This document shows, in pieces, positions 5,135 through 28,290 of a DNA stretch of 64,000 nucleotides; positions within the stretch are counted from its first letter, which is position 1, and every line of letters begins with the position of its first letter. The notes beneath the pieces were generated by a model that was given only the letters and a program-made list of their open reading frames with translations, made no database searches and was not told the origin of the DNA. The position numbers were made by a program, and so were the translations under genes. This stretch comes from Myxococcota bacterium (lineage in GTDB: Bacteria > Myxococcota_A > Polyangia > Nannocystales > Nannocystaceae): NCBI GenBank assembly GCA_039028615.1, contig JBCCHT010000030.1:28151-92150 (forward strand). Direction: 5' to 3'.

Positions 5135-6739
5135 CTAGCGGGCCATGCCGTAGGCCCCGCACCCGCTCATGGTGAAGTCCACGTCCCCCGGCGCCCCCGT
5201 GTAGAAGGTCGCCGACTGGGTCTGCGGGTCGTAGTACTCGACGTGGATCAGCCCCTGCTGCTGTCGGTACTCCGAGGCCAGGATGTCCTCGCTGAGCAGC
5301 GGCAGCGACACGACATTGTTGCCCGTGGCGAAGGGGGCCAGCGGGACATCGGCCGCCGTCGGCACGCGCCCCACCAACGCCCGGTACGGCTGCACGTTGG
5401 CATCGAAGTTCACCACGATGACCCCGCCGAAGCTCAGGTCGAAGTCCATCCAGGTGCTGCCGGAATCGATCGCGGTCCACCAGTAGTCCCAGCGCTGCGT
5501 GACCGGGTTCCACTGGCTGATGCGGTTCGCCGCGTCCTCGAACAGCGCGTCCGCATCGGAGATGGTCTCGAGATTACCCACCGTGCACAGGCCGATGAGG
5601 TTGTTGCCGGGGTACACGGGCGTGGTGACCTTGGCGAGCACGACCGAGTCGATCTCCACTCCGTCGGACATGAGCCGGTAGAAGTAGGTCGGCGTCTCCG
5701 TCCCCTGCGGAGCCGCGCCCGGGTCGGTGAACGACAGCTCCGTGCCCGAGTACAGGGAGACCGCGGTGGGCCCGGCATCGCGAGCACAGGACGCGGTGTC
5801 GCTCGGCAGATCGGCCGGGTCGGTGGCCCGCCAGATCTCCACCGTGCCCGAGCCGGAGCTCAGCACGTCCCAGGTGATGACGACGTCTTCGCCGTCGAGG
5901 TCGATGTCGGCCTCGAAGCCCACGTTGTCGTCGAGCTCGGGCGTGAACACGGCGTCGTCCACCCCCGGGCACAGATCGTCGTCGTCCTCGACCCCGTCAC
6001 CGTCCGCGTCGGCCGATGCCATGCTCACGGTGGAGCCCGCCTCGATGGGCACCCCGATCTCGGTCTCGTAGGCCCACCCGTGGATGATGAGGTGGTTGTT
6101 GGCGCTGTCGGAGGCGTTGAGGTTGTCGTGGCGCGCCTCGAGGTCGATCCAGCCCATGCGGCCGTCGGAGGTCTGGAAGCCGATGTAGCCGCGGCGGCTG
6201 GTGCCGTCGGTCGAGTACCACTCGCCGTTGAGGTTGTTGTAGTAGCGAGCCGCGATCCACCCCGCTGGGTCGCCGCCGCTCCAGCCGTCGTTGAGGGAGT
6301 TGGTCGCGTCGATGAGGTCACCCGCGGCGAGGATCGAGGGCGTGAAGCGCTCGGGGTTGGTGAAGTGCGGCTCGCCGACCCACGTCGCCAGATCGAGCCC
6401 CGTCGGCCAGTAGAGGTTGATCGCCGACCATGTCCGCACGTTCCCGGCCCACGGTGCGTACTGGTGCACGTGCCCGAACCGCATGTCCACGTCGCCGTCG
6501 CCGTCGAGGTCGACATCGAGGGTCGTCGGTGCCCCGCTGGTGGTCTCCACCGAGTCCCGCACGACCAGCGGAGCCGCGCTGTGGTCGGTCACAATGACCT
6601 CGGCCTGCGCCTCCTCGGCATACAGGCCGATCCCCAGCGCCAGTGCCATCGCTCCGACCAGCAGCGCGCGGCTCCGTGCCGTAGTGCTCGCGCTCAGTGC
6701 CCAGTGTCCCCCGTTGATCCGTCCGTGATTCGTATGCAT
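5135..6739 (-). CDS. secreted hypothetical protein with Asp-rich calcium-binding (thrombospondin type-3-like) repeats
   Basis: ORF 5135..6835; start chosen at MHTNHG (6739) giving signal peptide ..RALLVGAMALALGIGLYAEEAQA; motifs DADGDGVEDDDDLCPGVDD, DIDLDGED. Confidence 0.65.
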   Translation of the reverse strand: MHTNHGRINGGHWALSASTTARSRALLVGAMALALGIGLYAEEAQAEVIVTDHSAAPLVVRDSVETTSGAPTTLDVDLDGDGDVDMRFGHVHQYAPWAGNVRTWSAINLYWPTGLDLATWVGEPHFTNPERFTPSILAAGDLIDATNSLNDGWSGGDPAGWIAARYYNNLNGEWYSTDGTSRRGYIGFQTSDGRMGWIDLEARHDNLNASDSANNHLIIHGWAYETEIGVPIEAGSTVSMASADADGDGVEDDDDLCPGVDDAVFTPELDDNVGFEADIDLDGEDVVITWDVLSSGSGTVEIWRATDPADLPSDTASCARDAGPTAVSLYSGTELSFTDPGAAPQGTETPTYFYRLMSDGVEIDSVVLAKVTTPVYPGNNLIGLCTVGNLETISDADALFEDAANRISQWNPVTQRWDYWWTAIDSGSTWMDFDLSFGGVIVVNFDANVQPYRALVGRVPTAADVPLAPFATGNNVVSLPLLSEDILASEYRQQQGLIHVEYYDPQTQSATFYTGAPGDVDFTMSGCGAYGMAR

Positions 6740-6998
6740 CGTCCTGCCCCTGTTGTCTGTGTCGTGGTGGAGGGGTCGGTGGCACTTCGATGCGTTCCCC
6801 TCATTGGGACCGCCTCGCCGCTGCCTCCGAGTCACCCTTCAACAGGGCAGTGTTGCGAGCCTCGAATCGGGATGAGTCCAACACACAAAAAGATCGTGAA
6901 ATGTTCGGTGAAATCTCGCCGGGTTCGAGACCGCGCGTCGCTGTCGGGGGTTCCCTGGGTTCGACCCGCGCGACCGCAATTGCCGATACTCCACTGCG

Positions 6999-7919
6999 AT
7001 GAGCACTCGAGGGTTCCTGCTCGTGATCGGGGCCGCAGCCGCGGCCGGCATCGCCTTCGTCGTGCTCAGGGCCCCGCGCTCGCTCGAGATGAAAGTCCCC
7101 GGGCCCTGCGAGACCCGCCATACGGTCAGCTACCCCGACACCGACCTTCCTCCCGTGCCCCCCGAACGCATCGTGCATCGCTACGACGCCGCGGGCCGGC
7201 TGGCACTGGAGCAGCGTATGAACCAGGGCGATTCGATCGCCCAGAGCACGCGCTACGAGTACGACGAGGCCGGCAACCGGATCCTCGAGGAGCACACGCG
7301 CCCCGGGCCGATCCAGGTCACCGCGGCCGACGGCACCACGACCACCGAGACCAACCAGATCATCCGCTCGCGCTGGACCTACGACGCCGCCGGTCGCAAG
7401 GTCACCACCACCTTCGACGAGGGCGAAGGCACCCCGCCGACGCTGCACACCGTCCACGCCTACGACAAAAACGGCCACGAGCGCAGCACCCACAGCGAAC
7501 GCGAGGGCGGCAAGAGCAGCGACACCGACCTCGAGGTCGACGACCAGGGACGCGTGCTCACCCGGACGAGCCGCGGCAAGTCCCACCCCATGCAGCGCTT
7601 CACCTACGACGCCGACGGCAACCTGCTGCGCGACGCCGAGGACTACGACTCCGACGGGAAACCCGATCGGACCCTCGAGCACAGCTACGACGACGCGGGC
7701 CGGCACCTGCGAACGGTGGAGACCCTCCACCTGGGCAAGGGCGTGGTGGAGCGGCGGGAACGAACCTGGACCTACGACGACGCAGGCAACCCGCTCGAGC
7801 TACGGGAGAAACTGCTCGAGTCACCGGACGGCGGGAGCCTGCTGGTCGTCGAGACCCTCGACTACTCGTGCTGGACAGTGAAGGACGGCGTCGCGATCGA
7901 CGAACGCGGCGCCCCCTGA
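6999..7919 (+). CDS. short YD-repeat (RHS-family) protein with N-terminal TM/signal segment
   Basis: 306 aa; repeats YDAAGR, YEYDEAGNR, WTYDAAGRK, YDKNGHE, FTYDADGNL, HSYDDAGRH, WTYDDAGNP. Confidence 0.75.
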   Translation: MSTRGFLLVIGAAAAAGIAFVVLRAPRSLEMKVPGPCETRHTVSYPDTDLPPVPPERIVHRYDAAGRLALEQRMNQGDSIAQSTRYEYDEAGNRILEEHTRPGPIQVTAADGTTTTETNQIIRSRWTYDAAGRKVTTTFDEGEGTPPTLHTVHAYDKNGHERSTHSEREGGKSSDTDLEVDDQGRVLTRTSRGKSHPMQRFTYDADGNLLRDAEDYDSDGKPDRTLEHSYDDAGRHLRTVETLHLGKGVVERRERTWTYDDAGNPLELREKLLESPDGGSLLVVETLDYSCWTVKDGVAIDERGAP

Positions 7920-7988: not shown

Positions 7989-10421
7989 CTAGCTCGGGAG
8001 CTCGGGGAAGAACAGCAGGGTCTTGTCGGTGGTGGTGGTCGGACCCACCGTCACCGGGCGACCGGCGCGGAAGATCCACTGCACGGTCCACTCGTACTCG
8101 TCCTGCCCGGGGCCGCCCCGCGGCACTCGCCAGTTGAGCGGCTCGGTGGGCGTGCTCATGTAGACCTTGTCGAGCGAGCCGTCGATGCCGTCGGGCGCGT
8201 TGGGGTAGTCGAGCTTGACCCGAACGCCACGCAGACCGTCGGCTTCGAAGTCGGTGGCGACGTGCACGGTGACCTCGAGCATGCCGTTGGTGAACACGTC
8301 GCCCACGTTGAGCTGGCTGTCGCCCGTGGTGCCCTCGCGCTTGCCCACCGTGCCGTCGCGGAAGAAGTAGTTGATCGAGTACGTGAACTGGACCGGATCG
8401 CCGGACGCGGGGTTGGGCACGGCCCAGCTGCCCGAGGGGCTGCCCGGGGTGAGCTCGAAGACCTTACTGCTGGCGCTGTCGTCGGCGCCCGTCTCGACCT
8501 CGACCACCGCCTTGGTGTAGCGACCGAGCGGATCGAGCAGCTCGAGGCGCAGCTCGGTGATCCCCTCGGGGTTGGCGTCGAGCAGCACGGTGTCGGAGCC
8601 GAGACGCTTGAGCGCCTCGACCTCGCGACGGGTGCCGTCGGTGTAGTGCCAGGTGCCCTCGACCTGCCAGTTTGCCGCCCGGGACCCGGGACGGATGGGC
8701 ACGTCGACGGAGGTAGAGCCGGACTCGAGCTTGAAGGCCCGACGCTCGGAGCCGAACACCACCGCGCCCTCGAACAGGCGGGTGCGCTCCCAGTCGACGC
8801 GGCCGGCCTCGACCTTGGCGAAGACCATGGGCGAGTGCGCCTCGGGGTCGACCTCGAGGTGCCGCGTGGTCGTCGGGACCCAGTCGCTGACCGTCTGCGA
8901 CTCGTCCTCACCCAGCGCGAAGCCAGCGACGTGGTTGAGGGTCACGCGGTAGCTGATCTCGCGCGAGCCGTCGCTGTCGACGGCGAAGCTATAGGCGTGC
9001 TCGCTCTCGTCGGACTCGAGCACGGCCTCGGAGGAGCGCACGTCGGCGCTGCCGTACTTGACCTCGACGATCATCGAGGAGATGCCGCGCTCGTCGAGCT
9101 TGGCGTTGGTGCGAACCTTGCCGGAGATGTCGCGGAAGAAGGGGTGATCGAGGTCGGCCTCGAGCACGAGGCTCTTGGGGTCGACCGAGCCGCTGAGCGC
9201 GCGCAGGGTGCCCTGCGGGGCGAAGGAGCGGGTCGCCGCCGAGCTGCCCTTGGTTTCGTAGGTCACCGTGCGCAGCTCTTGCTGCTGCAGGCGCCGCAGC
9301 ATGAAGCCGGCCTGGGGCCGCCCCGCCTGGTTCCAGCGCTCGACCGCGGTGGGCTGGCGCGGCGTATTGGAGCCGCTGTTGTTGCCCGAGCCGTTCCCGG
9401 CGTTGTTGCCCGAGCCGTTCCCGGCGTTGTTGCCCGTGAGCCCGCCGCTGACGTTCGCGGTGCCTTCGACGACGTTGCTCTCGCTCCCCGAGTTGCCCGA
9501 GTCATCGCCCGAGCCCGGCGGGGTCAGGACCAGCGGCGTGGTGAAGCCGGCCGTATTGCTCGTGGCGTCGGTGGTCGCGTCGTAGATCGACATCGTGCCG
9601 CGATCGGCCGCGAGCACGGTGCCGGGGTTGATGGACGGCGAGAAGAAGTTGCCGGCCGCCAGCTCTTTGGCCAGGGCCTCGAGGCGCGTGCGCTCGGCCG
9701 CGACCTTGTCGGGCTCGAGCCCGACGAAGTCCTCCTGCTCGATGACGATGGCCTCCTCGCGCTGGAGCTTCTCGAACTCCTGATCCATGTCCGCCTTGAA
9801 GACCAGGGTGTTGGCCTGAAAGCGGTTGCGCAGGTGGTTGTAGGTCTGCTTGAAGTCGATTTTGATGTTGCCGCGATAGGTCGGCAGCATGCCCTTGAAC
9901 TGGAGGTCGTAGACCACCGACACGGGCAGCGCCCCCGGCTCGAGGATGGCCGCGCGCATGATCAGCGCCCCGCGGTGGCTCAGCTCCACGGAGAATGTGG
10001 CCCGGTTGTCACCATAGAGGGCGGGCTTGGCCGAGCCGATCACGCTCTCGATGAACAGCGACGCTTCTTCCTGGCCTTGCTGAAAGCCCAGCGTCGACAG
10101 CCGCACCGAGCCCCCCTCGAGCTGCACGGGCGAGACCGAAGCCGTGCCGCCGACTCGACTCGACAGCTCGGACTCGAGCTCTTCGATCTTGCTCTTGCTG
10201 ATCCCGAGGTCGACCGTCAGATCGAGAAAGCCACCGCCCGGCGCATCACCATCGCTGCGGTCCTCCATGGCCTTGCGATAGACGACGAGTCGAAACGCGA
10301 TGCCGTCGCCCAGCTTGGCGATCCGAGGCGCACCCGGCATGTAGTAGAAGAGACGCGGGTTGCTGTGGTCGCGGTAGACCACGATCCCGCCAAGCTCCAT
10401 GGGGCTGTCGAGAGAGAGCAT
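7989..10421 (-). CDS. large hypothetical protein (810 aa), no signal peptide, central Asn/Gly-rich low-complexity linker
   Basis: long ORF with protein-like composition; GNNAGNGSGNNAGNGSGNN linker; no recognisable catalytic motif. Confidence 0.6.
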   Translation of the reverse strand: MLSLDSPMELGGIVVYRDHSNPRLFYYMPGAPRIAKLGDGIAFRLVVYRKAMEDRSDGDAPGGGFLDLTVDLGISKSKIEELESELSSRVGGTASVSPVQLEGGSVRLSTLGFQQGQEEASLFIESVIGSAKPALYGDNRATFSVELSHRGALIMRAAILEPGALPVSVVYDLQFKGMLPTYRGNIKIDFKQTYNHLRNRFQANTLVFKADMDQEFEKLQREEAIVIEQEDFVGLEPDKVAAERTRLEALAKELAAGNFFSPSINPGTVLAADRGTMSIYDATTDATSNTAGFTTPLVLTPPGSGDDSGNSGSESNVVEGTANVSGGLTGNNAGNGSGNNAGNGSGNNSGSNTPRQPTAVERWNQAGRPQAGFMLRRLQQQELRTVTYETKGSSAATRSFAPQGTLRALSGSVDPKSLVLEADLDHPFFRDISGKVRTNAKLDERGISSMIVEVKYGSADVRSSEAVLESDESEHAYSFAVDSDGSREISYRVTLNHVAGFALGEDESQTVSDWVPTTTRHLEVDPEAHSPMVFAKVEAGRVDWERTRLFEGAVVFGSERRAFKLESGSTSVDVPIRPGSRAANWQVEGTWHYTDGTRREVEALKRLGSDTVLLDANPEGITELRLELLDPLGRYTKAVVEVETGADDSASSKVFELTPGSPSGSWAVPNPASGDPVQFTYSINYFFRDGTVGKREGTTGDSQLNVGDVFTNGMLEVTVHVATDFEADGLRGVRVKLDYPNAPDGIDGSLDKVYMSTPTEPLNWRVPRGGPGQDEYEWTVQWIFRAGRPVTVGPTTTTDKTLLFFPELPS

Positions 10422-10686
10422 TGGAGGCCGTTTGATTGGGGGTCGGCAGAGACAGGGGCCGCAATCCGCAACGGACGGGCACCCAACGATGGCGTCACCC
10501 TAACACCTCGAACCGAGTCTTGGGGTATCCACGTTTTCGCCCGCGACGTTACGCGGTTCCGTGAGCGAATCCATCGGCCGGCTAGTCGGCCGACATGCGG
10601 ACACCCATCGACTCGCCTACCGCCTCGTCAATGGCTATGGCACTGTGTGGCGCAGGCAGGGTAGTGGACCCGGCCGGGAGGTACCG

Positions 10687-12462
10687 ATGGCAGCTGTCGC
10701 CTCGCTAGTGGTCAGGCTCAAGACTTCGGGGAGTTCGGGCTCGAGTACGGACGACTGGGTCTACTTCGGAATCGGTACCCGCGAGTGGCTGCTGGATACC
10801 GACCGCGACGACTTCCAGGTCGGCCAGACCGAGACCTTCACCCTGCGGGTCTCGCCGGGCCTCGACACCTCGCACATCCAGGCGATCCAGCTGCGCAAGG
10901 TCAGCACCGACGGGTGGAAGCCCGAGCAGATCGAGGTCTTCGTCAACGACGCCAACATGACCGGCACCCCGCTTTATCGGGGCACCATCGACATGTTCCT
11001 CGATGGCGGCGGCGGGGCGGGGCTGGGCTATGGCCTGTGCTGGGAGGCCCCCGACTACACCGGGATCTTCGCCAACCCTACTCCCTACGCCCACGCCACC
11101 GATCCCGCGGTGACCTCCCTCTCGGTCGAGATCAAGACCGCGGCGGGGGCCGACAGCGGCACCGACGACGACGTCTACTTCAACGTCGGCACCCGCGAGT
11201 GGCTGCTCGACAAGCCCAGCCACAACGACTTCCAGCCGGGCCAGACCGACACCTACACGCTGACCAACTTCGGCTCGCTCAAGCTCAGCCACATCCGCCG
11301 CATCGCCCTGCGCAAAGAAGGCGACAACGGCGTCCAAATCGAGAAGATCAAGGTCACCATCAACGGCACGGTGCGCCTCGACGAGACCATCAATCGCTGG
11401 CTCGACGGCGGGTCGGGGGCCGAGCTGCAGCACGGCAAGTTCTGGGCCTCGCGCAACTTCCCGCACCCCGCCCCCGCGCCCATCGAAGACGCCATCACCG
11501 AGCTGAAGGTCACCGTCAGGACGCGGGACGTCGAGCACGCCGACACCTCGAACTACGTCTACTTCAACAACGGCATCAACGAGTGGACGCTGGGCGACCC
11601 GGCCAGCAACTACGGTCGCAACTCGAGCCAGACCTTCACCATCACCAACCTCACCGGGGTTCGGCTCTCCGATTTCCGCCAGCTGATGATCCGCAAGGAA
11701 GGCGGCAACGGCTGGGGCCTCGGGCACGTCAAGGTCGAGGTCAAGATGGGCGCGGTCAGCCGCACGCTCTACGACGGCTCCACCCGGATCTTCCTCGACG
11801 GCGCGGGCTCCGACTCCTCGAATCGACACGGCCTGTACTGGTCGGCCGCCGACTATGTCGTGCGGGTCCCCCTGCACTGCCACTGGGTCACCGGGCCCGT
11901 CGCGGGCGGCGTCACCCCGCGGCGTTCACAAGAAGCCAGCGCCGAGATCATCCGCAACCTCGGCACCGCCGCCTACCGCCAGGGTATGGGCGGCAGCAAC
12001 GGCTACTGGCACCAGGCCCGCGCGCAGTTCCACGTCATCGGCTTCACCCGGGCGCTCACGACCAACGCCAACGCCACGGTCATGTCCGACACCAACGACA
12101 ACTTCGCGATCATCGGCACCATCGCCGCCGCCAACAACGTCGCCAACGTCATCAACGCCTACTTCGTGCGGGCCACCAATACCGGCTCCAACTGGAACGT
12201 CCCCGCCGCCAGCTCCATCTGGGTGCAGGACACCCGAGGCGGCGCCACCGCCAACACCGGGGCCAACTTCCGCATGGTCGCCGTGTCCACGGCGCACGAG
12301 CTGGGCCACCATTTCGGCCTCAACCACGCCGGGGTCAAGCGCTACCTGATGACGGGGACCGGCACCAACCAAACCTCTCAGCTGCTGAACTTCTCGACCG
12401 GCGAAGACACCACCGCCCACACGGGCACCAAGAACCGCTTCGGCGCCACCGCGGGCCCCTAG
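10687..12462 (+). CDS. three tandem PLAT/LH2-like domains fused to a C-terminal minimal metzincin-type zinc metalloprotease domain
   Basis: GGGAGG RBS before ATG 10687; three ~100-aa repeats (VVRLKTSG..DDWVYFGIGTREWLLD; VEIKTAAG..DDDVYFNVGTREWLLD; VTVRTRD..NYVYFNNGINEWTLGD); HELGHHFGLNH encoded at 12295-12327, possible Met-turn RYLM. Confidence 0.8.
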   Translation: MAAVASLVVRLKTSGSSGSSTDDWVYFGIGTREWLLDTDRDDFQVGQTETFTLRVSPGLDTSHIQAIQLRKVSTDGWKPEQIEVFVNDANMTGTPLYRGTIDMFLDGGGGAGLGYGLCWEAPDYTGIFANPTPYAHATDPAVTSLSVEIKTAAGADSGTDDDVYFNVGTREWLLDKPSHNDFQPGQTDTYTLTNFGSLKLSHIRRIALRKEGDNGVQIEKIKVTINGTVRLDETINRWLDGGSGAELQHGKFWASRNFPHPAPAPIEDAITELKVTVRTRDVEHADTSNYVYFNNGINEWTLGDPASNYGRNSSQTFTITNLTGVRLSDFRQLMIRKEGGNGWGLGHVKVEVKMGAVSRTLYDGSTRIFLDGAGSDSSNRHGLYWSAADYVVRVPLHCHWVTGPVAGGVTPRRSQEASAEIIRNLGTAAYRQGMGGSNGYWHQARAQFHVIGFTRALTTNANATVMSDTNDNFAIIGTIAAANNVANVINAYFVRATNTGSNWNVPAASSIWVQDTRGGATANTGANFRMVAVSTAHELGHHFGLNHAGVKRYLMTGTGTNQTSQLLNFSTGEDTTAHTGTKNRFGATAGP

Positions 12463-12479: not shown

Positions 12480-12980
12480 ATGCCGACCATTCCCGAGCAA
12501 GTCCTCGAGCTCCTCAGCGCCGACCACCTCACGCACCAGGACGAAGCCGCCGTGCTCGCCCTGGGCAACGACGCCGTACAGACCCTGGTGAGCTACGCCC
12601 GCGGCCAGCACCCCGACGGTCGCGGCGACCTGCGAAGCCGAGCCATCAACGTCCTCGGCTCCAGCAGCGACGCCGCCCACACCACCTTGCTCGCCGGTCT
12701 GCTGGCGAGCCTCGAAGAAGAAGATCGCATCCGGGCTCTCATCTCGCTCGGTCGGCAGGGCACCGACGCCGCCATCGCCAGCATCGAGCAGTACGGCCGC
12801 GGCTCCGGGGTGAGCGACGTCGAGTTCGTCTTCGCCGCGCGGTCCATCGGAACATCCGGCAACGGCCAGGCCGTCGCTGCCCTCGGGCGCCTCAGAGGCT
12901 CCCGCACCTTGGAAGGCGAGCTACTCGCCGAGTTCAACGCCATTCCCGGAAGCGGCAGCGGCAATACCGGCATCGCCTGA
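12480..12980 (+). CDS. hypothetical protein with HEAT/armadillo-like helical repeats (166 aa)
   Basis: ATG 12480 preceded by aggag; repeats such as LLAGLLASLEEEDRIRALISLG; 3' portion of longer alternative-frame ORF 10785..12980. Confidence 0.55.
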   Translation: MPTIPEQVLELLSADHLTHQDEAAVLALGNDAVQTLVSYARGQHPDGRGDLRSRAINVLGSSSDAAHTTLLAGLLASLEEEDRIRALISLGRQGTDAAIASIEQYGRGSGVSDVEFVFAARSIGTSGNGQAVAALGRLRGSRTLEGELLAEFNAIPGSGSGNTGIA

Positions 12981-12991
12981 AGGAGGCTCCC

Positions 12992-13681
12992 ATGTCCAAC
13001 CATCAGATCCGTCCCGACATCGTCCAGAACCTGCGTGGCTTTTTCGCCAAGCAGTATCCCAACGCCACCATCACCGCGCAGAGCGTCCCCGGCCTGCAGG
13101 TCCTCGTGGGCGTCTACGACACCTACGCCGGCTCCGGCTTCTCCCGCTACGACGCCAACTGGGTCCCCGCCTTCGCCCTCAAGGCCCTCAAGACCAACCT
13201 CGGCACCCCCGACACCGCCGAGGCCCAGCTCATCGCCGCCGGGGGTGGCACCGCGACCGCGTCTACGCCCACGACACCCACCCCTGCGCCCAGCGACGGC
13301 GCCGAGCCGCCGGACTCGCCCGTCGACAATCGGCCGCCGCTGAGCATCGCGGCCACCGAGTTCGAGGACAACGGGTTGTTGTATCGGCACGAGGGGCATC
13401 AGGCGATCCGCGAGGTCCAGCTGCGCAAGGGCGGCATCTACTGCGTCGCTCGGGTGCCGCATGCGTCGACGGGGCTCACCGGGAATGCACCGAGCCCGCA
13501 GGCGATGTACGAGCTGGTCTATGCGGTGCCGCGCGAGGGGACGCGGGTCGATCCGGTCTTGCTGCACCGGGCGCGCATCGAGGACGCGACGGCGCCGACG
13601 CACATCTTCTGCTTCTTCGAGGCCTCCGGGGGGCATGAAGACGCGGACCGGATGAAGCTCGTCGACGCCCGGCAGCAGTAA
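12992..13681 (+). CDS. hypothetical protein (229 aa) with Thr/Pro-rich linker
   Basis: strong RBS gaaggagg before ATG; no family recognised. Confidence 0.6.
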   Translation: MSNHQIRPDIVQNLRGFFAKQYPNATITAQSVPGLQVLVGVYDTYAGSGFSRYDANWVPAFALKALKTNLGTPDTAEAQLIAAGGGTATASTPTTPTPAPSDGAEPPDSPVDNRPPLSIAATEFEDNGLLYRHEGHQAIREVQLRKGGIYCVARVPHASTGLTGNAPSPQAMYELVYAVPREGTRVDPVLLHRARIEDATAPTHIFCFFEASGGHEDADRMKLVDARQQ

Positions 13682-13745: not shown

Positions 13746-14096
13746 CCACGTCTCCCCGGACGCAAGAACGGGCGTCTATCCAGAATCGGCGATGTGGCGT
13801 TCGATCCCGCTCGGCGGTGCATGCATCGATGAGCGCGGCCGAGGCCGGCCCTCGCAAAAGCAAGTGTAGCGCCCCGCGGTGTTTAATGCCTGGACTCAGC
13901 GTCCAGGTCGCGACCGTGCATCCGCCCGGCCGTTCTGTCTGGCTCAAACAACCCCGCTGGAACCGAAACCCCATTTCCGCATACAGACGCTACGAAAAAC
14001 TCGTCTTGGATTGGTCACTTCGGGCCACGGTGGAGATCTCATCCCTACAGTTCCAACCACTCGGCCACCACATCACCCCTGATATATTTATATTAG

Positions 14097-15920
14097 GTGG
14101 TCGAATCTAGTGCACACCATGACCTCGCAACACTTCTGCGATCGGGCGCCGGCAAAGACATTCTCTCGGGTCTCCGTGGTGTAAGTCTCGCAGAGAACAA
14201 CCTCCAGGGGGCTGACCTCCGAGAAGCTGACCTCCGAGAAGCTGACCTCCGAGAAGCTGACCTCCGAGAAGCTGACCTCCGAGAAGCTGACCTCCGAGAA
14301 GCTGACCTCCGAGAAGCTGACCTCCGGCGAGCTGACCTTGCTGGAGCAGATCTCCGAAGCGCTCGACTTGCAACAGCAGATTTTCGAGGAGCCAACCTCT
14401 ACGCCGCTGATATCAGAGAGGCTACTCTGTCCAATATCAGTGCCCCGGGCGATTCTTCATATCGAGGAATCGCAAAATTCCAAGGCTGTAATCTTCACAG
14501 AGCAAATCTGAGCAACACAGATCTTTCCTTCGCCAGCTTCCATGGAGCACTCCTCTACCAGGCGAACCTTCACTCGACACATGGATATGACCCGCAATTC
14601 CAAGGCGCGGATCTAGCTTTTTCACAGATCCAGAAGGTCAAGTGGACAGGAGCCAACCTACAGGGCTCCAGGGCATGCTATTCCTTCATATACAAATCTG
14701 AACTAAGAGAAGTCAACATCAGAGGCACAGACCTACGGAACGCACTAGCACTCCGATCCGACCTAAGCCGAATTAACACACGAGGCACAAGGACAGAAAG
14801 CTCCGTTGTCGACTTCCTCTTCGGAAGGGCGCTTTCTCGGAACCCCAAGAGACGAATCTCAGAGCTCGCAGGACGTCTAGTACTCGAAAAGAGGGATGAC
14901 CAGTTAGAACAAATACGCCTAAGCCTGAAGAACCACTACCACAAAGGCGAAGATCTAAACAACGAAGAGATTCACTGGTTTGACCTCGAAGGGAACGACT
15001 ATACTCAAGCGGACTTCGAGGGGGCCTCATTTTCAGGCTACAATTTCCGAAACGCATGCCTCACGGGAGCCAATCTCATCAGGGCCAATCTTCGAGGCGC
15101 AGATCTTCGAGGTGCAGACCTTCGAAACGCGAAACTCTCCTTTGCAAGCCTACAGGGCGCGAATCTTGAAGGTGCGGATCTGGAGGGCGCAGACCTGGGC
15201 AACGCAAGCGTCGCTGGCGCGGATCTTCAAAATGCCTGTCTGAGAGCCTCGAATTTATCCGGCGCGGACCTTCGCGGAGCAAGCCTGGAAGGAACCACTC
15301 TCGAGGCAGCGAATCTCGACAACGCTGACATCCGAGACATATACACCGACAAGCACACATTGTTCGCGGCGAGCTCCCTCGATGGGGCAGTGATCAGAAG
15401 TTACACAATCGTAGATGTCGACAACATATCCGACCGTCAGAAGATACGACTCAACATCCATGACTCCCTCGCAGAGCTCAGGAGTGACTACTCTGGACTC
15501 TGGCTTTGGTTTCACCTAATAGCGCTCATCGCGTTCCTATCGCCGTACCTGTCCTTTATCGGCCGCGCCCTCGCGCTCTCGGCCATAACCCCTCCATCAG
15601 AGGGGGCTCATTCGCTCGCCTTTGAGCTCGGATGGTACATATTGTCCGGCGGCGATGGAACGCATGAAATCAGCGCAAAGTTCTACTTGTTCATTATTGG
15701 GATTTTGTACAACGCCATCCGAGGAGCATTGCTCTACAAAACCCACTCGCTGATGCTTCAGCAGGAGATCTCCCAGCTACCACTAATGTACATACTAGAA
15801 AATGACTACTGGTGGAACCTAGCGCACAAGACCGCAAGAACCATGTTTCGGATCAACCTCTTTATCGTCGCAGTTCATTTGCTCATGTTTTTTCAACAAC
15901 CCGTGGTACTAACGCTCTAG
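14097..15920 (+). CDS. pentapeptide-repeat protein with C-terminal multi-TM domain
   Basis: A(D/N)LxxA repeats across ~400 aa incl. ADLRE x8, ANLRGADLRGADLRNAKL; C-terminal hydrophobic helices; GTG start uncertain. Confidence 0.8.
   Translation: MVESSAHHDLATLLRSGAGKDILSGLRGVSLAENNLQGADLREADLREADLREADLREADLREADLREADLREADLRRADLAGADLRSARLATADFRGANLYAADIREATLSNISAPGDSSYRGIAKFQGCNLHRANLSNTDLSFASFHGALLYQANLHSTHGYDPQFQGADLAFSQIQKVKWTGANLQGSRACYSFIYKSELREVNIRGTDLRNALALRSDLSRINTRGTRTESSVVDFLFGRALSRNPKRRISELAGRLVLEKRDDQLEQIRLSLKNHYHKGEDLNNEEIHWFDLEGNDYTQADFEGASFSGYNFRNACLTGANLIRANLRGADLRGADLRNAKLSFASLQGANLEGADLEGADLGNASVAGADLQNACLRASNLSGADLRGASLEGTTLEAANLDNADIRDIYTDKHTLFAASSLDGAVIRSYTIVDVDNISDRQKIRLNIHDSLAELRSDYSGLWLWFHLIALIAFLSPYLSFIGRALALSAITPPSEGAHSLAFELGWYILSGGDGTHEISAKFYLFIIGILYNAIRGALLYKTHSLMLQQEISQLPLMYILENDYWWNLAHKTARTMFRINLFIVAVHLLMFFQQPVVLTL
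14211..14330 (+). repeat. perfect 15-bp tandem repeat gctgacctccgagaa x7 plus one imperfect unit, encoding (ADLRE)n
   Basis: direct reading of sequence 14211-14330; in-frame inside pentapeptide-repeat gene. Confidence 0.9.
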
Positions 15921-16038
15921 TGTCACGATAGATCTATCATCAAAACCAACGCACACGAGGCGAGAGTGGGTCAACGCAGCGTCAGTGAGTATAAGAGTAT
16001 AAGGAAATAGGCAGCAACGCCGAGGGCCTGTTTCGATC

Positions 16039-16092
16039 CGCGGCTACGGCACGTGAACCGAGAGGATCTCGAACCGTACGCCGTCGTCGGTT
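16039..16092. repeat. right copy of 54-bp direct repeat (true 3' end of gene 16044..16421)
   Basis: cgcggctacggcacgtgaaccgagaggatctcgaaccgtacgccgtcgtcggtt; encodes ..HETDDGVRFEILSVHVP* on minus strand. Confidence 0.8.
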
Positions 16093-16421
16093 TCGTGCAC
16101 GCGGGCGCTCAACGCCAGGTCGCTCGCACCCGACTCCACCGTCCATAGATCGACGAGCACGTCCCAGTGCGTGCCCATCCACTGCGAGACCGAGGTGCTC
16201 CATGTCGCCTCGGGCAGCGCGACGAGCGTCTCGCCAAAGTCGGCGACATAGTGCTCGATCTGCGCGACAGCCCTCGCATCGATGGCCACCGAGGCCACCC
16301 GCGAAAGAGCGTAGTCACCTGCGGCGAACGCCTCCACCACCTCGCCGATGACCGACCGCCATGCACTCGCCACCGGGCGCGCACGCTCTTCGTCTTTGAA
16401 GGCAGGTTCGGCCGTCCGCAT
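16044..16421 (-). CDS. hypothetical protein (125 aa); its 3' end is the duplicated islet boundary
   Basis: ORF 16044..16529, start chosen at MRTAEPAF (16421); no family recognised. Confidence 0.5.
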   Translation of the reverse strand: MRTAEPAFKDEERARPVASAWRSVIGEVVEAFAAGDYALSRVASVAIDARAVAQIEHYVADFGETLVALPEATWSTSVSQWMGTHWDVLVDLWTVESGASDLALSARVHETDDGVRFEILSVHVP

Positions 16422-16435
16422 CGTCGACCGCGATC

Positions 16436-16915
16436 TTAGTCCACGCTCCCGGTCGGTTCGAGCAAGCGCTGATCCTCGCGCTCCGCCCGGCTCCGTAGGG
16501 GCATCAACGCAGCGTCCAGCTCGGGCCACGCGTTCGCGATCGCATCGTCACCAGCCTCCAGGAGCGCACCGAGTTGCGAGACCTCGAGGCCACCGACGCC
16601 GTCGTAGCTGTCGCAGACATCGAACAGCTGCCCCACGAGATCGGGCTTCGTCACCCCGACTCGCTCGCCGCGGAGCACGATGCACCCCGCGAGCAAGTCG
16701 CCGTAGTCCTCCGGCAGCATCCTCTGTGCATCTACCAGCGCTCGACTCAGGCAAGCTTCCGCAGTCTCGCTCGTCTTGCACAGGCTCAGCTCCAACAACC
16801 AACTCGGCGAGTCTTCCCGCTCCGAGATCCGAGCATCGACCCACTCCACGAGCGTGGCCACGCTCCACAGCTCGGCGTCGACGACCGCGAACAAGGCAAC
16901 GAGGAGGTTCTCCAT
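16436..16915 (-). CDS. hypothetical protein (about 159 aa), upstream partner of 16044..16421
   Basis: ORF 16436..17053, start chosen at MENLLVAL; stop 12 bp before next start; acidic, no family recognised. Confidence 0.4.
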   Translation of the reverse strand: MENLLVALFAVVDAELWSVATLVEWVDARISEREDSPSWLLELSLCKTSETAEACLSRALVDAQRMLPEDYGDLLAGCIVLRGERVGVTKPDLVGQLFDVCDSYDGVGGLEVSQLGALLEAGDDAIANAWPELDAALMPLRSRAEREDQRLLEPTGSVD

Positions 16916-23271: not shown

Positions 23272-26200
23272 ATGGCGAGCATGCGAGGGGGAACACGAGG
23301 CCAGCGCGCTTTCGGACTCTTGGGATTGGTGGTGGCGGCCTCGTTGCTGCCCGACTCGGCCCAGGCCCAGGTGGCGGTCACCCGCACCCGCTTCGAGCTG
23401 CCCGCGTCCAACGGCTACGGAGCGATCATCCTCAACCTCGACGCGGGCGACCCCGGGCAATCGCGACGGCTGGTCCACTTTCGCGAGCACCTGTACGCGG
23501 TCGAGGAACCACAGCTCGACACCCGCGGCCACGAGATCTGGAACGGCGGCGACTTTGCGGCGGTCTACACCCGCGACCTGCTGTTCGACGCGTACTTCGG
23601 TCTGCGTGACGGTGGCGGCCAGGCCTGGCTGACCACGGTGCCCGTCGACTTCGACGCGAGCGGCTACGCGGGCTGGCAAGAGGGCGAGACGGGCGGCACG
23701 GGCCTGGTGACCATGGTGCAGACCATGGGCTCGCTCGAGGCCACGCAGTACTTCTTCACCCCGGTCGAACTCGAGGCCAACGCGTTCGTCATGGCGATGC
23801 GCGTGCGCAACGTCGGCGGCAACACGGTGCCCGACGCCCAGGCGTTCTCGCTGCACAACTTCCACCTCGGCTACGGCCGCGCCCAGTCGCCCTGGGAGGT
23901 CCAGCAGGACATCGGGGAGAACGGCGAGACGCTCCTGTGGGACGGCAGCGGCGGCGGAGCGGCCTATACCGAGCGCGGCTTCGCGGGGGTGATGGCGGTG
24001 CGGGCCACGGGCAACGTGGCGCACTACGGGGCCGCACCTGCGGTCAACGTGTACGCCATCGTCAACGACGGCGGCACGACCGATCTGCCCGACAACCCCA
24101 CCCCCGACATGGCGGTGGACGGTGCGACCGGGGCCCTCCAATTCGACCTCGGAGACCTCGGACCCGGGCAAGAAGCCTGGGTCGCGGTGACGGTGGTGCA
24201 CCACGGCGATCCGCAAGCGGGCGCCGCCGCGCTCGGCCTGGCCGACGCGTGGATCGACGGCCGCGACGCGCAAGCGCTCGTGCAGGACGAGATCGACGGC
24301 TGGGCCGACTTCCAGGCCACCGTCGAGCTGCCCGCCGATCTCGATTCCTACGAAGAGACGCTGACCCGGCACAGCGCCACGATGCTGCGCATGGGGCAGG
24401 TGCAAGAAGACGAGAGCTACCTCCGCGAGTGGCTCACCCAAGACGGCGAGCCTCGTCGCACCCGCTTCCCCAGCCCCGACGCGCCCACGGCCCTGCCCGG
24501 CGTGGTGCAGCACAACGGCCGCGGCGCGGTGCTGGCCAGCCTGCCTCCCGGCAACTGGACCTACGCGTGGATCCGCGACGGGGCCTACGCCACCGTGGCC
24601 ATGGCCGTGCTCGGCATGGTGCCCGAGGCCCGAGCCGCGCTCGAGTTCTACCTCGAGGCCGAGGCCGGTCGCTTCGTCGACTGGTCCGAGCTCGACGGCT
24701 ACGACATGCCCGACTACCAGATCTCGCTGGTGCGCTACTACGGGTTCGGCGTCGAGGAGACCGACTTCAATGCCTTCGGGCCCAACCTCGAGTTCGACGG
24801 CTTCGGGCTGTTCTTGTGGGCGCTGCGAGCCTACGAGCAGCAGACCGGCGACGAGGCGCTGGCGGCCGAGTACTGGCCGGTCATCTCCGAGCGCATCGCC
24901 GACGTGCTGGTCGCGCTGGTCGACCCCGCGACCGGGCTCATCCGTCGCGACTCGTCGATCTGGGAGAGCCACTGGGAAGGGCGCGAGCGCTACTGGGCGT
25001 ACACCACGATCACCGCGGTGCGAGGGCTCTGTGACGCGGCCGCGATCGCCGACCGCCTGGGCGAGGCCGAGCAGGCCGAGACCTACCGCAGCACCGCGCT
25101 GGGATTGCGCGAGGCGATCGTCACCCAGCTGACCGATTCCAACGGCGCCATCGCGTCGAACCTCGAGGAGCTGGAGTCGGGCCAGGGCTACTGGGACGCC
25201 GCGGTCATCGACGCCGTCGCGATGGGGCTGTTCGATCCGCAGGGCGAGATCGCCAGCGCGACCCTGGCCGGGCTCGATGCCAACCTGCTCACCCCCGCCA
25301 GCGAGGTCGGCTGGGCGCGTAACGACGACGACACCGACCACGAGGGCGCCAGCGATCTGAGCCCCTGGGGCAGCGTCTACGACGCGGTGGAGTGGGTGAT
25401 CACCGACCTGCGCGGCACCATGGCCTGGCGCGGGGCGGGCGACGAGGGCCGGGCGGACGCGATCCTGCAGTGGATCCTCGCGCAGTCCCTGGCGAACTAC
25501 CTGATGGTAGCCGAGACCTTCGACGCCAACACGGGGACCTACGAGAACAACACGCCGATGCTCGGCTTCGGGGCGGGCGCCTGGGCGCTCGCGCTCGCCC
25601 ACCGCGAGGGTGAGTTCCAGGACGCCGCCTGTGGTGAGTTCTGGGAGGGCGGCGACGGAGGCACCGGGGGCGACGACACCTCGGGCGACGAGACGGCCGG
25701 CGACGGCGGTACCGCGACGAGCGGAGCCGCCGACTCCACCGGCCAAGACGACGACGGAGAGACGCAAGGGATGAGCGGCAACATCACCAGCGAGGGCGAC
25801 GGGGTCACCGATCCGGGCTTCACCGGGGCGGGCTCGGAGAGCGGCGGCACCGGGTGCAGCTGCACGACCACGGGCGAGGGCACGGGGGGCTTCGGCGCGC
25901 TGATCCTCGGCCTGCTCGGCCTGGGCTGGCGACGACGACGTCGCGTGCTCGCATTGGCGGGAGCGACCGCGATGCTCGGTGGATGTGCCGATGATGCCCC
26001 CACCCCCGCGGGCGGCACGGGCACGGGCGAGGCCGCCACCACCCTGCCGTTGTCCGGCAATACCGAGACGACCGACACCCCGCCCACCACGGGCCTCGAC
26101 GACACCACCACCGCCGTCGATCCGACCGGGGGCGGCGAGGACATCACCCCGGTCGAGCTGTGCCCGACCGAGTTCACGTTCTCCCCCAGCGGCAGCGTGT

Positions 26201-28290
26201 CCAACGTGAGGCTGGTGCACGAGGCCCAGAGCTTCGACCTGGCCACCGCGGTGGCCATGAAGGAGGCCGGTGGCGGCTACGAAGCCACCGTGGACCTGCC
26301 CATCGGGCTCAATGCCTACAAATTCGTGTACGACCAGGGCGGCGAGCAGAACTGGGTCTTCGATCCCGAGCAGGCGCGCCGCAAGTACGTCGACGGGGTC
26401 GAGAACTCGGGCGTGCTCGTGCCCGACTGCAACCTCCCGCAGCTGCACGTGCAGACCAGCGAATCGGGCTACGAGGGCCCCGACGCGGGCACCTACGACG
26501 CTCAGCTCAGCTACCGAGACGGCTTTCATGCCTTCGGCGCCGACCCGGACGCCTACGAGATCGTGCTGCGTCACGCGAGCACCGAGCGTGCTCTGCTGCC
26601 CGAGGAGATCACCATCGAGGAGAGCGGCGACGTCACCTTGTCGTTGTCCGGGCTGGAAGATGGCAAGCACACCGTGGTGCTCGTCCCCGTCGACCAACGC
26701 TCGCAGCGGGGCGAGCCCGTGCGGCTGGTGTTCTGGGCCGAGGCGGAGCCCTTCTCCTGGGAGGACGCGCTCGTCTACATGGTCGTCACCGATCGCTACC
26801 GCAACGGCGACCCGAGCAACGACGGGCCCGTCACCCCCGGTGCCGATGGCCCCGGCGACTGGTTCGGCGGCGACCTCGAGGGCCTGCGCCTGTCCATCGC
26901 CGAGGGTGAGCTCGATGCCCTGGGCGTGCGCGCGATCTGGCTGACCCCGTGGCAGACCAACCCCGTCGGGGGCTACGCCGCCGCCGATGGCATCCACACC
27001 GTCACCGGGTACCACGGCTACTGGCCGACTCGCGCCCGCGAGGTCGACCCGCGGCTCGGCGGCGAAGAGGCTCTACGCGCGCTCGTCGACGAAGCCCACG
27101 CGCACGGCATCCGCATCCTGCAGGACTACGTCATCAACCACGTGCACGAAGAGCACGAGTACGTCGCCGAGCACCCCGACTGGTTCCGCACCGGGTGCGT
27201 GTGCGGAGGCGACGGCTGCGGCTGGACCGAGGCCGCGCTCTACTGCCTGTTCCAGCCCTACATGCCGGACATCGACCACTCCGTGCCCGAGGCCAACGCC
27301 CAGTTCGTCGAGGACGCGGTGTGGTGGGTCGACGAGTTCGACCTCGACGGACTGCGCGTCGACGCCGTCAAGCACGTCGAGGAGGTCGCCACCCGCAACA
27401 TCTCCGCCGCGATCCGCGAGACCTTCGAGCAATCGGGGGCCCACTACTTCCTCATGGGCGAGACCGCCATGGGGTGGAACAACTGCGCCGACCCCTGCAA
27501 CGACGAGAACTACGAGACCATCGCCCGCTACGTCGGCCCGCACGGCCTCGATGGCCAGTTCGACTTCGTGCTCTATCACGCCGCCTCCTACGGCGTGTTC
27601 GGCTACTCCGACTACGGGATGATCCACGCCGACTACTGGTTCAACCACGGCCAAGGCAAGTGGCCCGAGGGGTCGATCATGACCCCGTATATCGGCAGCC
27701 ACGACACCCCGCGCTTCTCCACCCTCGCCGACTATCGCGGCCAGGACCCCGGCCATGATCGCGGCATCGCCCACGTCCAGTGGGGAGACATCGCGCAGGC
27801 CCCCGGCGACGACGAGCCCTATTGGCGCACCCGGGTCGGCTTCGCCTGGCTGCTCGGCCTGCCCGGTGCTCCGCTGCTCTACTACGGTGACGAGTACGGC
27901 CAGTGGGGCGGCGCCGACCCGAACAACCGCATGATGTGGCGCCCGCCCGGCGAGCTGAACGCATGGGAGACCGAGACGCTCGCCTTCGTGCGTACCCTCG
28001 GCCAGCTGCGGCAGCAGATCCAGCCGCTGCGGCGCGGTCGCTACGTGGGGCTGTGGGCCACCGAGGACGCGCTGCTCTTCGGGCGCATGGAAGACCCGGG
28101 CGAGGCCGCCATCGTCGGCGTCAGCCGGGCCGCCACCGCGCAGGAGCACACCTTCTCCGTCGTCTCGCTCGGCTTCCTCCCCGGCACCATGCTGAGCGAC
28201 GCGCTCGGCGGACCGGGTGCGATGGTGGCCGGCGACGGTACCGTCACCGTCACCGTGCCCGCGCGCGGGGCCGTGATCTTGGTGCCGTAG
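23272..28290 (+). CDS. 1672-aa secreted multi-domain glycoside hydrolase: GH15 (glucoamylase/glucodextranase-like) domain + Gly/Asp-rich linker + internal MYXO-CTERM-like/TM hairpin + CBM48-like module + GH13 alpha-amylase-family catalytic domain
   Basis: signal peptide MASMRGG..AASLLPDSAQAQ; NWTYAWIRDGAY (GH15-like); GCSCTTTGEGTGGFGALILGLLGLGWRRRRR; YKFVYDQGGEQNWVFDP (CBM48-like); GH13 regions DYVINH, GLRVDAVKH, GETAMG, GSHDTPR. Confidence 0.85.
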   Translation: MASMRGGTRGQRAFGLLGLVVAASLLPDSAQAQVAVTRTRFELPASNGYGAIILNLDAGDPGQSRRLVHFREHLYAVEEPQLDTRGHEIWNGGDFAAVYTRDLLFDAYFGLRDGGGQAWLTTVPVDFDASGYAGWQEGETGGTGLVTMVQTMGSLEATQYFFTPVELEANAFVMAMRVRNVGGNTVPDAQAFSLHNFHLGYGRAQSPWEVQQDIGENGETLLWDGSGGGAAYTERGFAGVMAVRATGNVAHYGAAPAVNVYAIVNDGGTTDLPDNPTPDMAVDGATGALQFDLGDLGPGQEAWVAVTVVHHGDPQAGAAALGLADAWIDGRDAQALVQDEIDGWADFQATVELPADLDSYEETLTRHSATMLRMGQVQEDESYLREWLTQDGEPRRTRFPSPDAPTALPGVVQHNGRGAVLASLPPGNWTYAWIRDGAYATVAMAVLGMVPEARAALEFYLEAEAGRFVDWSELDGYDMPDYQISLVRYYGFGVEETDFNAFGPNLEFDGFGLFLWALRAYEQQTGDEALAAEYWPVISERIADVLVALVDPATGLIRRDSSIWESHWEGRERYWAYTTITAVRGLCDAAAIADRLGEAEQAETYRSTALGLREAIVTQLTDSNGAIASNLEELESGQGYWDAAVIDAVAMGLFDPQGEIASATLAGLDANLLTPASEVGWARNDDDTDHEGASDLSPWGSVYDAVEWVITDLRGTMAWRGAGDEGRADAILQWILAQSLANYLMVAETFDANTGTYENNTPMLGFGAGAWALALAHREGEFQDAACGEFWEGGDGGTGGDDTSGDETAGDGGTATSGAADSTGQDDDGETQGMSGNITSEGDGVTDPGFTGAGSESGGTGCSCTTTGEGTGGFGALILGLLGLGWRRRRRVLALAGATAMLGGCADDAPTPAGGTGTGEAATTLPLSGNTETTDTPPTTGLDDTTTAVDPTGGGEDITPVELCPTEFTFSPSGSVSNVRLVHEAQSFDLATAVAMKEAGGGYEATVDLPIGLNAYKFVYDQGGEQNWVFDPEQARRKYVDGVENSGVLVPDCNLPQLHVQTSESGYEGPDAGTYDAQLSYRDGFHAFGADPDAYEIVLRHASTERALLPEEITIEESGDVTLSLSGLEDGKHTVVLVPVDQRSQRGEPVRLVFWAEAEPFSWEDALVYMVVTDRYRNGDPSNDGPVTPGADGPGDWFGGDLEGLRLSIAEGELDALGVRAIWLTPWQTNPVGGYAAADGIHTVTGYHGYWPTRAREVDPRLGGEEALRALVDEAHAHGIRILQDYVINHVHEEHEYVAEHPDWFRTGCVCGGDGCGWTEAALYCLFQPYMPDIDHSVPEANAQFVEDAVWWVDEFDLDGLRVDAVKHVEEVATRNISAAIRETFEQSGAHYFLMGETAMGWNNCADPCNDENYETIARYVGPHGLDGQFDFVLYHAASYGVFGYSDYGMIHADYWFNHGQGKWPEGSIMTPYIGSHDTPRFSTLADYRGQDPGHDRGIAHVQWGDIAQAPGDDEPYWRTRVGFAWLLGLPGAPLLYYGDEYGQWGGADPNNRMMWRPPGELNAWETETLAFVRTLGQLRQQIQPLRRGRYVGLWATEDALLFGRMEDPGEAAIVGVSRAATAQEHTFSVVSLGFLPGTMLSDALGGPGAMVAGDGTVTVTVPARGAVILVP

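Follow-up and report, generated by a model that had tools for sequence, protein, structure and literature searches.

We describe a rare bacterial gene pair in which a membrane-targeting module appears to have been joined to a zinc protease and provided with a small partner protein. The window that we analysed is a 64,000-nucleotide (nt) stretch of the genome of a Myxococcota bacterium (contig JBCCHT010000030.1). Its gene at 10687-12462 encodes a protein of 591 amino acids (aa) with three tandem PLAT domains of the clostridial alpha-toxin subtype, followed by a C-terminal domain with the sequence and predicted fold of a metzincin, and with no secretory leader. A HEAT-repeat gene lies directly behind it, here and in every complete locus of the family. 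It is in our judgment an even call that the pair is a two-gene cassette composed of a membrane-targeted protease effector and an in-trans HEAT inhibitor, immunity protein or chaperone, assembled on a portable PLAT module. Both domain families were already known, and the gene is present in GenBank under a generic name. What is new here is the leaderless architecture of tandem alpha-toxin-type PLAT domains and metzincin, the conserved two-gene cassette, and the exchange of protease for phospholipase D on the same module. In the literature we found nothing combining PLAT with a metzincin, PLAT with polymorphic toxins, or a HEAT partner with a metzincin. The features of the locus are as follows.

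10676..10681, + strand: GGGAGG ribosome-binding site, seen in the sequence itself and lying 5 nt ahead of the ATG
10687..12462, + strand: triple-PLAT metzincin gene, 591 aa, NCBI MEM7157603.1
10687..11064, + strand: PLAT domain 1, residues 1-126, beginning at the first residue without a leader; Pfam PLAT/ATS3; predicted local distance difference test score (pLDDT) 83-94
11098..11472, + strand: PLAT domain 2, residues 138-262, the copy closest to alpha-toxin
11479..11856, + strand: PLAT domain 3, residues 265-390, the most divergent copy
11857..12459, + strand: predicted metzincin catalytic domain, residues 391-591, with five-stranded sheet, active-site helix, Met-turn and C-terminal helix
12295..12327, + strand: zinc-binding motif HELGHHFGLNH, residues 537-547 (H537, E538, H541, H547)
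12349..12351, + strand: Met-turn methionine M555 (RYLMTG), nearly invariant in the family alignment and in an alignment of 59 relatives
12480..12980, + strand: HEAT-repeat partner gene, 166 aa, MEM7157604.1, "hypothetical protein", starting 17 nt past the protease stop
12992..13681, + strand: third gene of the apparent operon, 229 aa, with a strong ribosome-binding site GAAGGAGG, directly after the HEAT gene

The open reading frame (ORF) was judged to be real, and its GC content at third codon positions (0.92) is like that of the neighbouring genes. An exact look-up identified it as MEM7157603.1 of a Myxococcota metagenome-assembled genome (MAG), named "PLAT/LH2 domain-containing protein" and nothing more. 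We place the start at 10687 and not at the GTG at 10561 because the ribosome-binding site sits 5 nt before the ATG. Every homologue opens with M-x-x-V/I-T/D-S-L, which is β-strand 1 of the first PLAT domain, and the in-frame stretch upstream, which a stop before nt 10504 closes off, is not hydrophobic. As a test for leaders we took the maximum hydropathy of any 12 residues within the first 45, which was 0.7-1.7 in all 13 family members examined, so that a hydrophobic N-terminal segment is absent from each of them. The initial annotation had read three tandem PLAT domains, a metzincin and the lack of a Sec signal from the raw sequence, and Pfam, AlphaFold, Foldseek and hydropathy agree with that reading.

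The Pfam PLAT model (PF01477) matches three stretches of the protein, scoring 67.2 bits (cut-off 23; E=2.6e-18). AlphaFold, supplied with a 17-sequence family alignment, predicts three β-sandwiches at approximately residues 1-126, 138-262 and 265-390 with pLDDT of about 90. The ten top Foldseek matches of the predicted triplet in the PDB are clostridial alpha-toxins with 30-36% identity, followed by the PLAT domains of lipoxygenases; the PLAT domains of both groups are matched with a Foldseek probability of 1.00. The relationship is detectable by sequence alone, since phmmer aligns PLAT2 with residues 255-366 of alpha-toxin 1ca1 at E=1.5e-11. In a joint alignment the identity to the alpha-toxin C-domain is 36.6% for PLAT1, 41.2% for PLAT2 and 22.8% for PLAT3; PLAT1 and PLAT2 share 47% identity, and PLAT3 shares 30-31% with each of them. 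In alpha-toxin, Asp269 and Asp336 bind calcium, and membrane binding needs Tyr275, Tyr307, Tyr331 and Phe334 (PMC4690130); the D269N, T272P and D336N mutants lose most activity (PMC5127136). PLAT2 retains the D/G/T/D and D..ND loop positions of alpha-toxin, and the equivalents of T272, D273, D293, N297, D298 and D336 have largely been preserved in the first two PLAT domains. Because these calcium and membrane-loop positions are largely kept, calcium-assisted membrane docking by the triplet is a reasonable and plausible expectation.

Another combination of PLAT repeats with a metallopeptidase-like region was encountered in archaea. Micrarchaeota (DPANN) encode 1264-aa proteins with a signal peptide, TSP3, Ig-like repeats/Big_7, an HExxH region HESGHGLFGVADEY and C-terminal PLAT repeats that are 31-32% identical to the bacterial triplet (L018, 5565-9284; L019; L020; L036). 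The order of the domains is reversed relative to the 591-aa protein, and the combination is an independent one.

The assignment of the C-terminal domain required more than family models. Its Pfam scores fall just short of threshold for Reprolysin_4 (20.5 vs 22) and Reprolysin_3 (20.6 vs 22.4) and further short for Reprolysin_5 (17.2 vs 27); Matrixin is also below threshold, Pfam Peptidase_M43 gives no match, and NCBIfam adds only faint archaemetzincin-type matches. Some family members and close relatives do pass the Reprolysin_5 threshold. In the initial full-length AlphaFold model the domain had pLDDT of 30-75; with a deeper alignment of the domain this became 90.1, with a predicted template modelling score of 0.90 and the canonical five strands, active-site helix and C-terminal helix. 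Structural neighbours of the model, with their listed figures, are ulilysin (14.9), ADAM-8 (14.3), ADAM17 (14.3), atrolysin C (14.2), mirolysin (14.2), CpaA (12.9), archaemetzincin (12.7) and fragilysin (11.6); snapalysin is also among them. The model therefore identifies the domain as a genuine metzincin of a divergent small family, near the pappalysin/adamalysin fold. Two narrower placements were considered and rejected. Membership in M12B (adamalysin/reprolysin) fails on the Reprolysin scores and on the residue after H547, which is Ala here and variable in the family. Membership in M43 (pappalysin) fails on the Pfam result, ulilysin being merely the best structural neighbour at 15% identity.

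The conservation of the active site agrees with this assignment in all respects except one. The 591-aa protein has an exact HExxHxxGxxH motif; H537, E538, H541 and H547 are invariant in the family and in 59 divergent relatives, and M555 is present in at least 90% of the sequences in both alignments. Across the 59 relatives, domain columns H150, E151, G153, H154, L158 and H160 are invariant and W54 and M168 nearly so, which gives the catalytic family the signature HExGHxxxLxH plus the Met-turn methionine. The initial annotation had relied on the exact motif and a possible Met-turn, and had named loss of the conserved Gly or third His in homologues as the point that would count against it. The Met-turn and the third His stand; the Gly (G544 here) does not, being replaced by T in two and by D in another two of the 16 family members, and being any of G/T/S/D/N/C/A/K/H across the wider catalytic family. 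What upholds the metzincin assignment, despite the variable Gly, is the predicted metzincin fold together with a third His that never varies. The description of the domain as "minimal" holds only in a relative sense, since with about 200 aa it is small and yet exceeds snapalysin in size. On its motif, the domain would be a zinc endopeptidase.

The catalytic family is small. A profile of the domain found only 112 matches at E<=0.001 among 1.84 billion representative proteins, mostly stand-alone proteins of 200-330 aa. In some relatives the domain is C-terminal to OmpA and PG_binding_1, TIG, Big_2/Big_6, Peptidase_C39 or prolyl-oligopeptidase modules. Hydropathy reaches the leader-like range (>=2.0) in 23 of 44 stand-alone relatives. 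A leaderless stand-alone subgroup has 230-270 aa, each protein opening directly with strand 1 ("VPVVAHRLFG"), and comprises P0027-P0030, P0036, P0039, P0046, P0052, P0058, P0071, P0073, P0084 and P0097. A Cys pair located between the third His and the Met-turn is conserved in the Actinomycetota clade.

The same triple PLAT also occurs with a different enzyme. Three proteins of 925-939 aa carry a C-terminal phospholipase D (PLD) domain with two HKD motifs in place of the protease.

Triple-PLAT PLD paralogues: P0008, which is MEM7156979.1; L002, 10001-12820; L003; L021

MEM7156979.1 probably comes from the same MAG submission as the 591-aa protein, since it bears the label "[Myxococcota bacterium]" and an accession close to MEM7157603.1. 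The PLD paralogues are 57-61% identical to the 591-aa protein by BLASTP, and 63-65% within the PLAT alignment. Most metzincin-bearing members are only 39-46% identical to the triplet of the window, i.e., they are farther from it than the PLD paralogues are. The proteins matched by the PLD domain are human PLD1/2, plant PLD-alpha and cardiolipin synthases; together they make up the superfamily's lipid-acting branch. A profile search with the PLAT triplet found no C-terminal variants beyond metzincin and PLD. The triplet is thus a portable module that carries either a metzincin or a PLD. In L021 a class-3 lipase gene lies just upstream of the PLAT3-PLD gene. The initial annotation had taken the triplet for a lipid- or membrane-targeting module, and this proposed role gains support from the alpha-toxin subtype and the acidic loop positions of PLAT1 and PLAT2, from the fusion of the paralogous triplet to a PLD of the lipid-acting branch, and from the occurrence of the catalytic type C-terminal to other targeting domains.

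The partner of the protease is a HEAT_2/HEAT_PBS gene of 157-168 aa, on the same strand and directly 3' of the metzincin gene in every complete locus. Considering loci with a complete gene and enough downstream DNA, it is present in 13/13 loci from which both sequences were extracted, and in all other complete loci among approximately 20 recognised by hidden Markov model. The gap between the two genes is 9-32 nt in 12 of the 13 loci and 125 nt in the other. No other neighbour is conserved, and the remaining neighbours differ between clades, in genomes whose GC content runs from 44% to 72%. The 166-aa protein of the window matches Pfam HEAT_2 (E=5.6e-6), and a profile search of the PDB places it with HEAT proteins of the PBS-lyase/alphaRep type, the class that artificial alphaRep binders are modelled on. 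The HEAT proteins have no signal peptide in the hydropathy test, and their invariant residues are L12, H16 (in a D/E-H-F/L motif), R54, R83 and E115. The PLD loci have no HEAT gene. The HEAT gene is therefore linked to the protease and not to the PLAT module, because it is missing from the PLAT3-PLD paralogues even though their triplet is the closer one to that of the window. Mean identity among the HEAT proteins is 40%, compared with 53-58% for the enzyme, so the HEAT protein diverges faster; immunity proteins and inhibitors often evolve fast. We saw no consistent pattern of net-charge complementarity between the HEAT protein and the enzyme.

The 229-aa product of the third gene has no family match. 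Counterparts of 223-230 aa were found only in the Myxococcota-like clade (L005/L006, L008/L009 and L024, with a truncated copy ending L025). The gene may be the third component of the operon, but being clade-specific it is an uncertain member of the system. A scan of the operon for promoters and terminators gave nothing above shuffled expectation.

The family is tiny and amounts to about 20 clusters: a search of 5.8 billion clusters recovered 19 proteins, and a profile search added four. Scans of genomes and metagenomes added Nocardioides sp. GXQ0305, three Actinomycetota MAGs and about ten metagenome contigs. The triple-PLAT metzincin is accordingly found in Myxococcota-like genomes and in Actinomycetota, including cultured Nocardioides; the complete genome of Nocardioides euryhalodurans carries the family member WP_135075386.1, annotated as "hypothetical".

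We propose the following model for the protease-HEAT cassette. The three alpha-toxin-type PLAT domains would form a membrane-docking module, probably assisted by calcium, and the C-terminal third would be an active zinc endopeptidase. Docking would set the protease at the lipid bilayer, where it could cut membrane or membrane-proximal proteins. The HEAT gene, a few nucleotides downstream, would be cotranscribed, and its product would be a cytoplasmic alphaRep-like binding protein that most likely binds the protease within the producer cell. The enzyme lacks a pro-domain, and the HEAT protein may act as an in-trans latency factor or immunity protein, or possibly as an export chaperone. Membrane binding, proteolytic activity, binding of HEAT to protease, toxicity and export are all parts of the model that we infer. 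Extracellular action is hinted at by the alpha-toxin subtype of the PLAT domains, by the secreted nature of their nearest relatives (alpha-toxin itself and the Micrarchaeota proteins with signal peptides), by the leaders of about half of the stand-alone catalytic relatives, and by the Cys pair of the Actinomycetota clade.

Several observations weigh against a secreted effector with a dedicated immunity protein. The equivalent of alpha-toxin D269 is present only in part of the PLAT2 copies, and the membrane-inserting loop with Y331 and F334 is deleted in the PLAT copies, its place being taken by a loop of the form G-x-(D/N)-G-W, in which the Trp is conserved. Mirror-tree and partial-correlation analyses do not discriminate the partner of the HEAT protein, its correlation with the catalytic domain or with PLAT being r 0.975 vs 0.982. 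The PLD version has no conserved neighbour shared by L002 and L021, and a PLD paralogue without a conserved neighbour implies that the family is not a uniform toxin-immunity system. No PAAR, VgrG, LXG, WXG, RHS or MIX marker was detected in the 591-aa protein, for which Pfam and NCBIfam return only PLAT/ATS3 and the weak metzincin matches, and no secretion-system genes were found near the cassette or among the scanned ORFs of the window. Any single specialised secretion system is unlikely because the same leaderless architecture exists in diderm Myxococcota and in monoderm Actinomycetota. Finally, the nearest stand-alone catalytic relatives are leaderless too.

The last point is equally an argument for the main alternative, that the cassette functions inside the cell as a suicide or defence system, which we consider unlikely but a serious contender. 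The HEAT protein would restrain a cytoplasmic enzyme until a trigger such as phage, envelope breach or calcium influx causes the PLAT domains to dock on the inner leaflet, whereupon the protease or PLD would destroy the cell's own membrane components in the manner of abortive infection or a toxin-antitoxin pair. In eukaryotic cells a rise in calcium makes PLAT and C2 domains bring cytosolic enzymes to membranes, as is established for 5-lipoxygenase. Such a role would suit an enzyme and a HEAT protein that are both leaderless and encoded by tightly coupled genes, and defence systems typically swap effectors on a constant module, as protease and PLD are swapped here. Some cassettes adjoin mobile or toxin-antitoxin genes: PemK and an integrase (L001), a DDE transposase (L022), or a resolvase, PIN/DUF433 and a large helicase-nuclease (L004). 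Against it, none of the 5027 models of PADLOC-DB 2.0 matches the enzyme, which led us to reject a known anti-phage defence system; the 229-aa and 810-aa proteins of the window likewise have no match there, and the HEAT protein matches only a generic HEAT-ARM model at E=0.008. The cassette is also absent from collections of 72,556 plasmids and 50,697 phages, in which neither the enzyme nor two leaderless relatives had a tblastn match. Nothing would restrain the PLD version, which lacks a partner, and an extracellular site is suggested by the Cys pair of one clade and by the nearest PLAT relatives, which are secreted.

A further proposal, somewhat less probable, keeps the enzyme as an exported predatory or competitive one and makes the HEAT protein a dedicated folding or export chaperone or adaptor instead of an inhibitor. 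HEAT scaffolds are generic binders, their linkage to the protease is strict, and an enzyme without a pro-domain may need help with folding. CpaB, the chaperone of the Acinetobacter metzincin CpaA, is membrane-anchored; the HEAT protein has neither membrane anchor nor leader, and secretion machinery is not linked to the cassette. Moreover, chaperone and inhibitor roles can coincide, and the present evidence does not separate them. It is quite improbable that the protein is a housekeeping membrane-associated protease with a regulatory HEAT subunit, engaged in quality control or processing of membrane proteins and without any role in conflict. The leaderless state of both proteins would be expected in that case, and the GC content of the cassette genes tracks that of the host locus everywhere, over a range of 44-72%, so the cassette is not a recent import. 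A housekeeping role is hard to reconcile with an extremely rare and patchy family scattered over unrelated phyla in variable genomic contexts, with PLAT domains that resemble those of a toxin, and with the presence of a PLD paralogue on the same module.

A bolder reading has in our opinion a small chance of being correct. The triple PLAT would be the carrier of a new conflict module, a portable "membrane warhead carrier" without known secretion signal that is released non-classically or else remains cytoplasmic until calcium influx makes it dock on the membrane of its own cell. The cytoplasmic HEAT protein would neutralise the metzincin as a new class of proteinaceous metzincin inhibitor, its invariant His16 acting in trans as a zinc switch. 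If the cassette works as the effector model proposes, a tandem array of alpha-toxin-type PLAT domains can bring either a protease or a phospholipase D to membranes, and the HEAT protein would be the first HEAT-repeat partner of a metzincin. Natural metalloprotease inhibitors might thereby gain a new class, one that uses the scaffold of engineered alphaRep binders. The export of a toxin-like leaderless protein in both diderm and monoderm bacteria would then be a puzzle in its own right. The cultured carriers N. euryhalodurans and Nocardioides sp. GXQ0305 make the cassette testable. Should the explanation be an ordinary one, the locus would nonetheless illustrate cleanly how domains are shuffled within a very rare family that is so far annotated only as "PLAT/LH2 domain-containing" or "hypothetical".

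The gene content of the window otherwise looked typical of a myxobacterial genome. Conservation of the neighbourhood with an 810-aa gene, which the initial annotation had suggested surveying, was not borne out: synteny is confined to L005, and the conserved partner is the HEAT gene, which had been missed. We rejected the 810-aa gene as a functional partner, since its family is widespread and unrelated and the synteny does not extend beyond that closest relative examined. The protein itself (7989-10421, - strand) has no match in Pfam, NCBIfam or PADLOC and represents a sizeable uncharacterised family, with 68 full-length homologues (810-850 aa) in Myxococcota, Acidobacteriota, Gammaproteobacteria (Thiocapsa bogorovii) and Propionibacteriaceae. 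There are three paralogues in the source MAG, and the copy in the window is 100% identical to AAF799_32480.

Downstream of the cassette, a 607-aa pentapeptide-repeat protein (14097-15920, + strand; Pfam E=3e-71) begins with eight perfect ADLRE repeats, encoded by a 15-nt tandem repeat, and ends with hydrophobic segments. Its gene lies in a low-GC stretch at 14001-16000 (52.7% GC vs 66-73% for the genome), and this island was likely acquired horizontally. Upstream, a 306-aa protein (6999-7919, + strand) combines RHS/YD repeats (Pfam E=1e-11) with a hydrophobic segment at its N-terminus, and has a counterpart at the same position in the 89%-identical relative L005. It adjoins a 566-aa protein (5135-6835, - strand) with a hydrophobic N-terminal segment, judged by eye, and no family match. 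Further genes of the window (16044-16529, - strand; 23272-28290, + strand; 30281-32854, + strand; 45602-49476, + strand) include those for a DUF7668 protein, a 1672-aa fusion of GH15 and alpha-amylase, and three Ser/Thr protein kinases, one with TPR repeats.

Among known systems, the alpha-toxin of Clostridium perfringens (1ca1, 1qm6) is the nearest to the PLAT module. Its PLAT domain is of the same subtype (37-41% identity to PLAT1 and PLAT2), and both proteins would follow one logic, in which PLAT brings a zinc hydrolase to the bilayer. The alpha-toxin, however, has a single C-terminal PLAT domain behind an all-helical phospholipase C, plus a Sec leader, whereas the 591-aa protein has three N-terminal PLAT domains ahead of a metzincin, lacks both a leader and the Y331/F334 loop, and comes with a HEAT partner. 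The catalytic domain shares HExxHxxxxxH and the Met-turn with pappalysin/adamalysin-like metzincins such as ulilysin (2cki), ADAM-8 (4dd8), atrolysin C, mirolysin and fragilysin. It is only 10-15% identical to them, falls below every Pfam and NCBIfam metzincin threshold, and lacks the Asp after the third His, a pro-domain and the adamalysin disulfide pattern; its Gly position is variable.

Plant phospholipase D-alpha, in which a C2 domain precedes the HKD domain, resembles the PLAT3-PLD paralogue in having a calcium/lipid-binding β-sandwich ahead of a PLD. C2 is nevertheless a different domain from PLAT, the kingdom is another one, and there is no evidence for common descent of the two architectures.

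The cassette resembles polymorphic toxins in having a constant N-terminal triple PLAT (57-65% identity) with alternative C-terminal enzymes, metzincin or PLD, and a small fast-evolving gene directly behind the metzincin version. Polymorphic toxin systems are known to include toxin domains of the metallopeptidase kind (Zhang et al. 2012, PMC3482391). It differs from them in that the 591-aa protein lacks a known trafficking domain (PAAR, VgrG, LXG, WXG, TPS or RHS), its C-terminal variants number just two, no candidate for an immunity gene lies downstream of the PLD variant, and PLAT is absent from the N-terminal modules described for polymorphic toxins (PMC3482391).

With serralysin AprA and AprI, snapalysin and sermetstatin (4hx3), and CpaA and CpaB (6o38), the cassette would share the pairing of a bacterial metzincin with a dedicated inhibitor or chaperone that is encoded beside it or works with it. 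AprI, sermetstatin and CpaB differ from the HEAT protein in being β-barrel, SSI-fold or membrane-anchored proteins that act outside the cytoplasm; we know of no described cytoplasmic HEAT-repeat binder of a metzincin. Tandem PLAT arrays are otherwise known from eukaryotic LOXHD1, whose repeats the bacterial triplet resembles in this arrangement.

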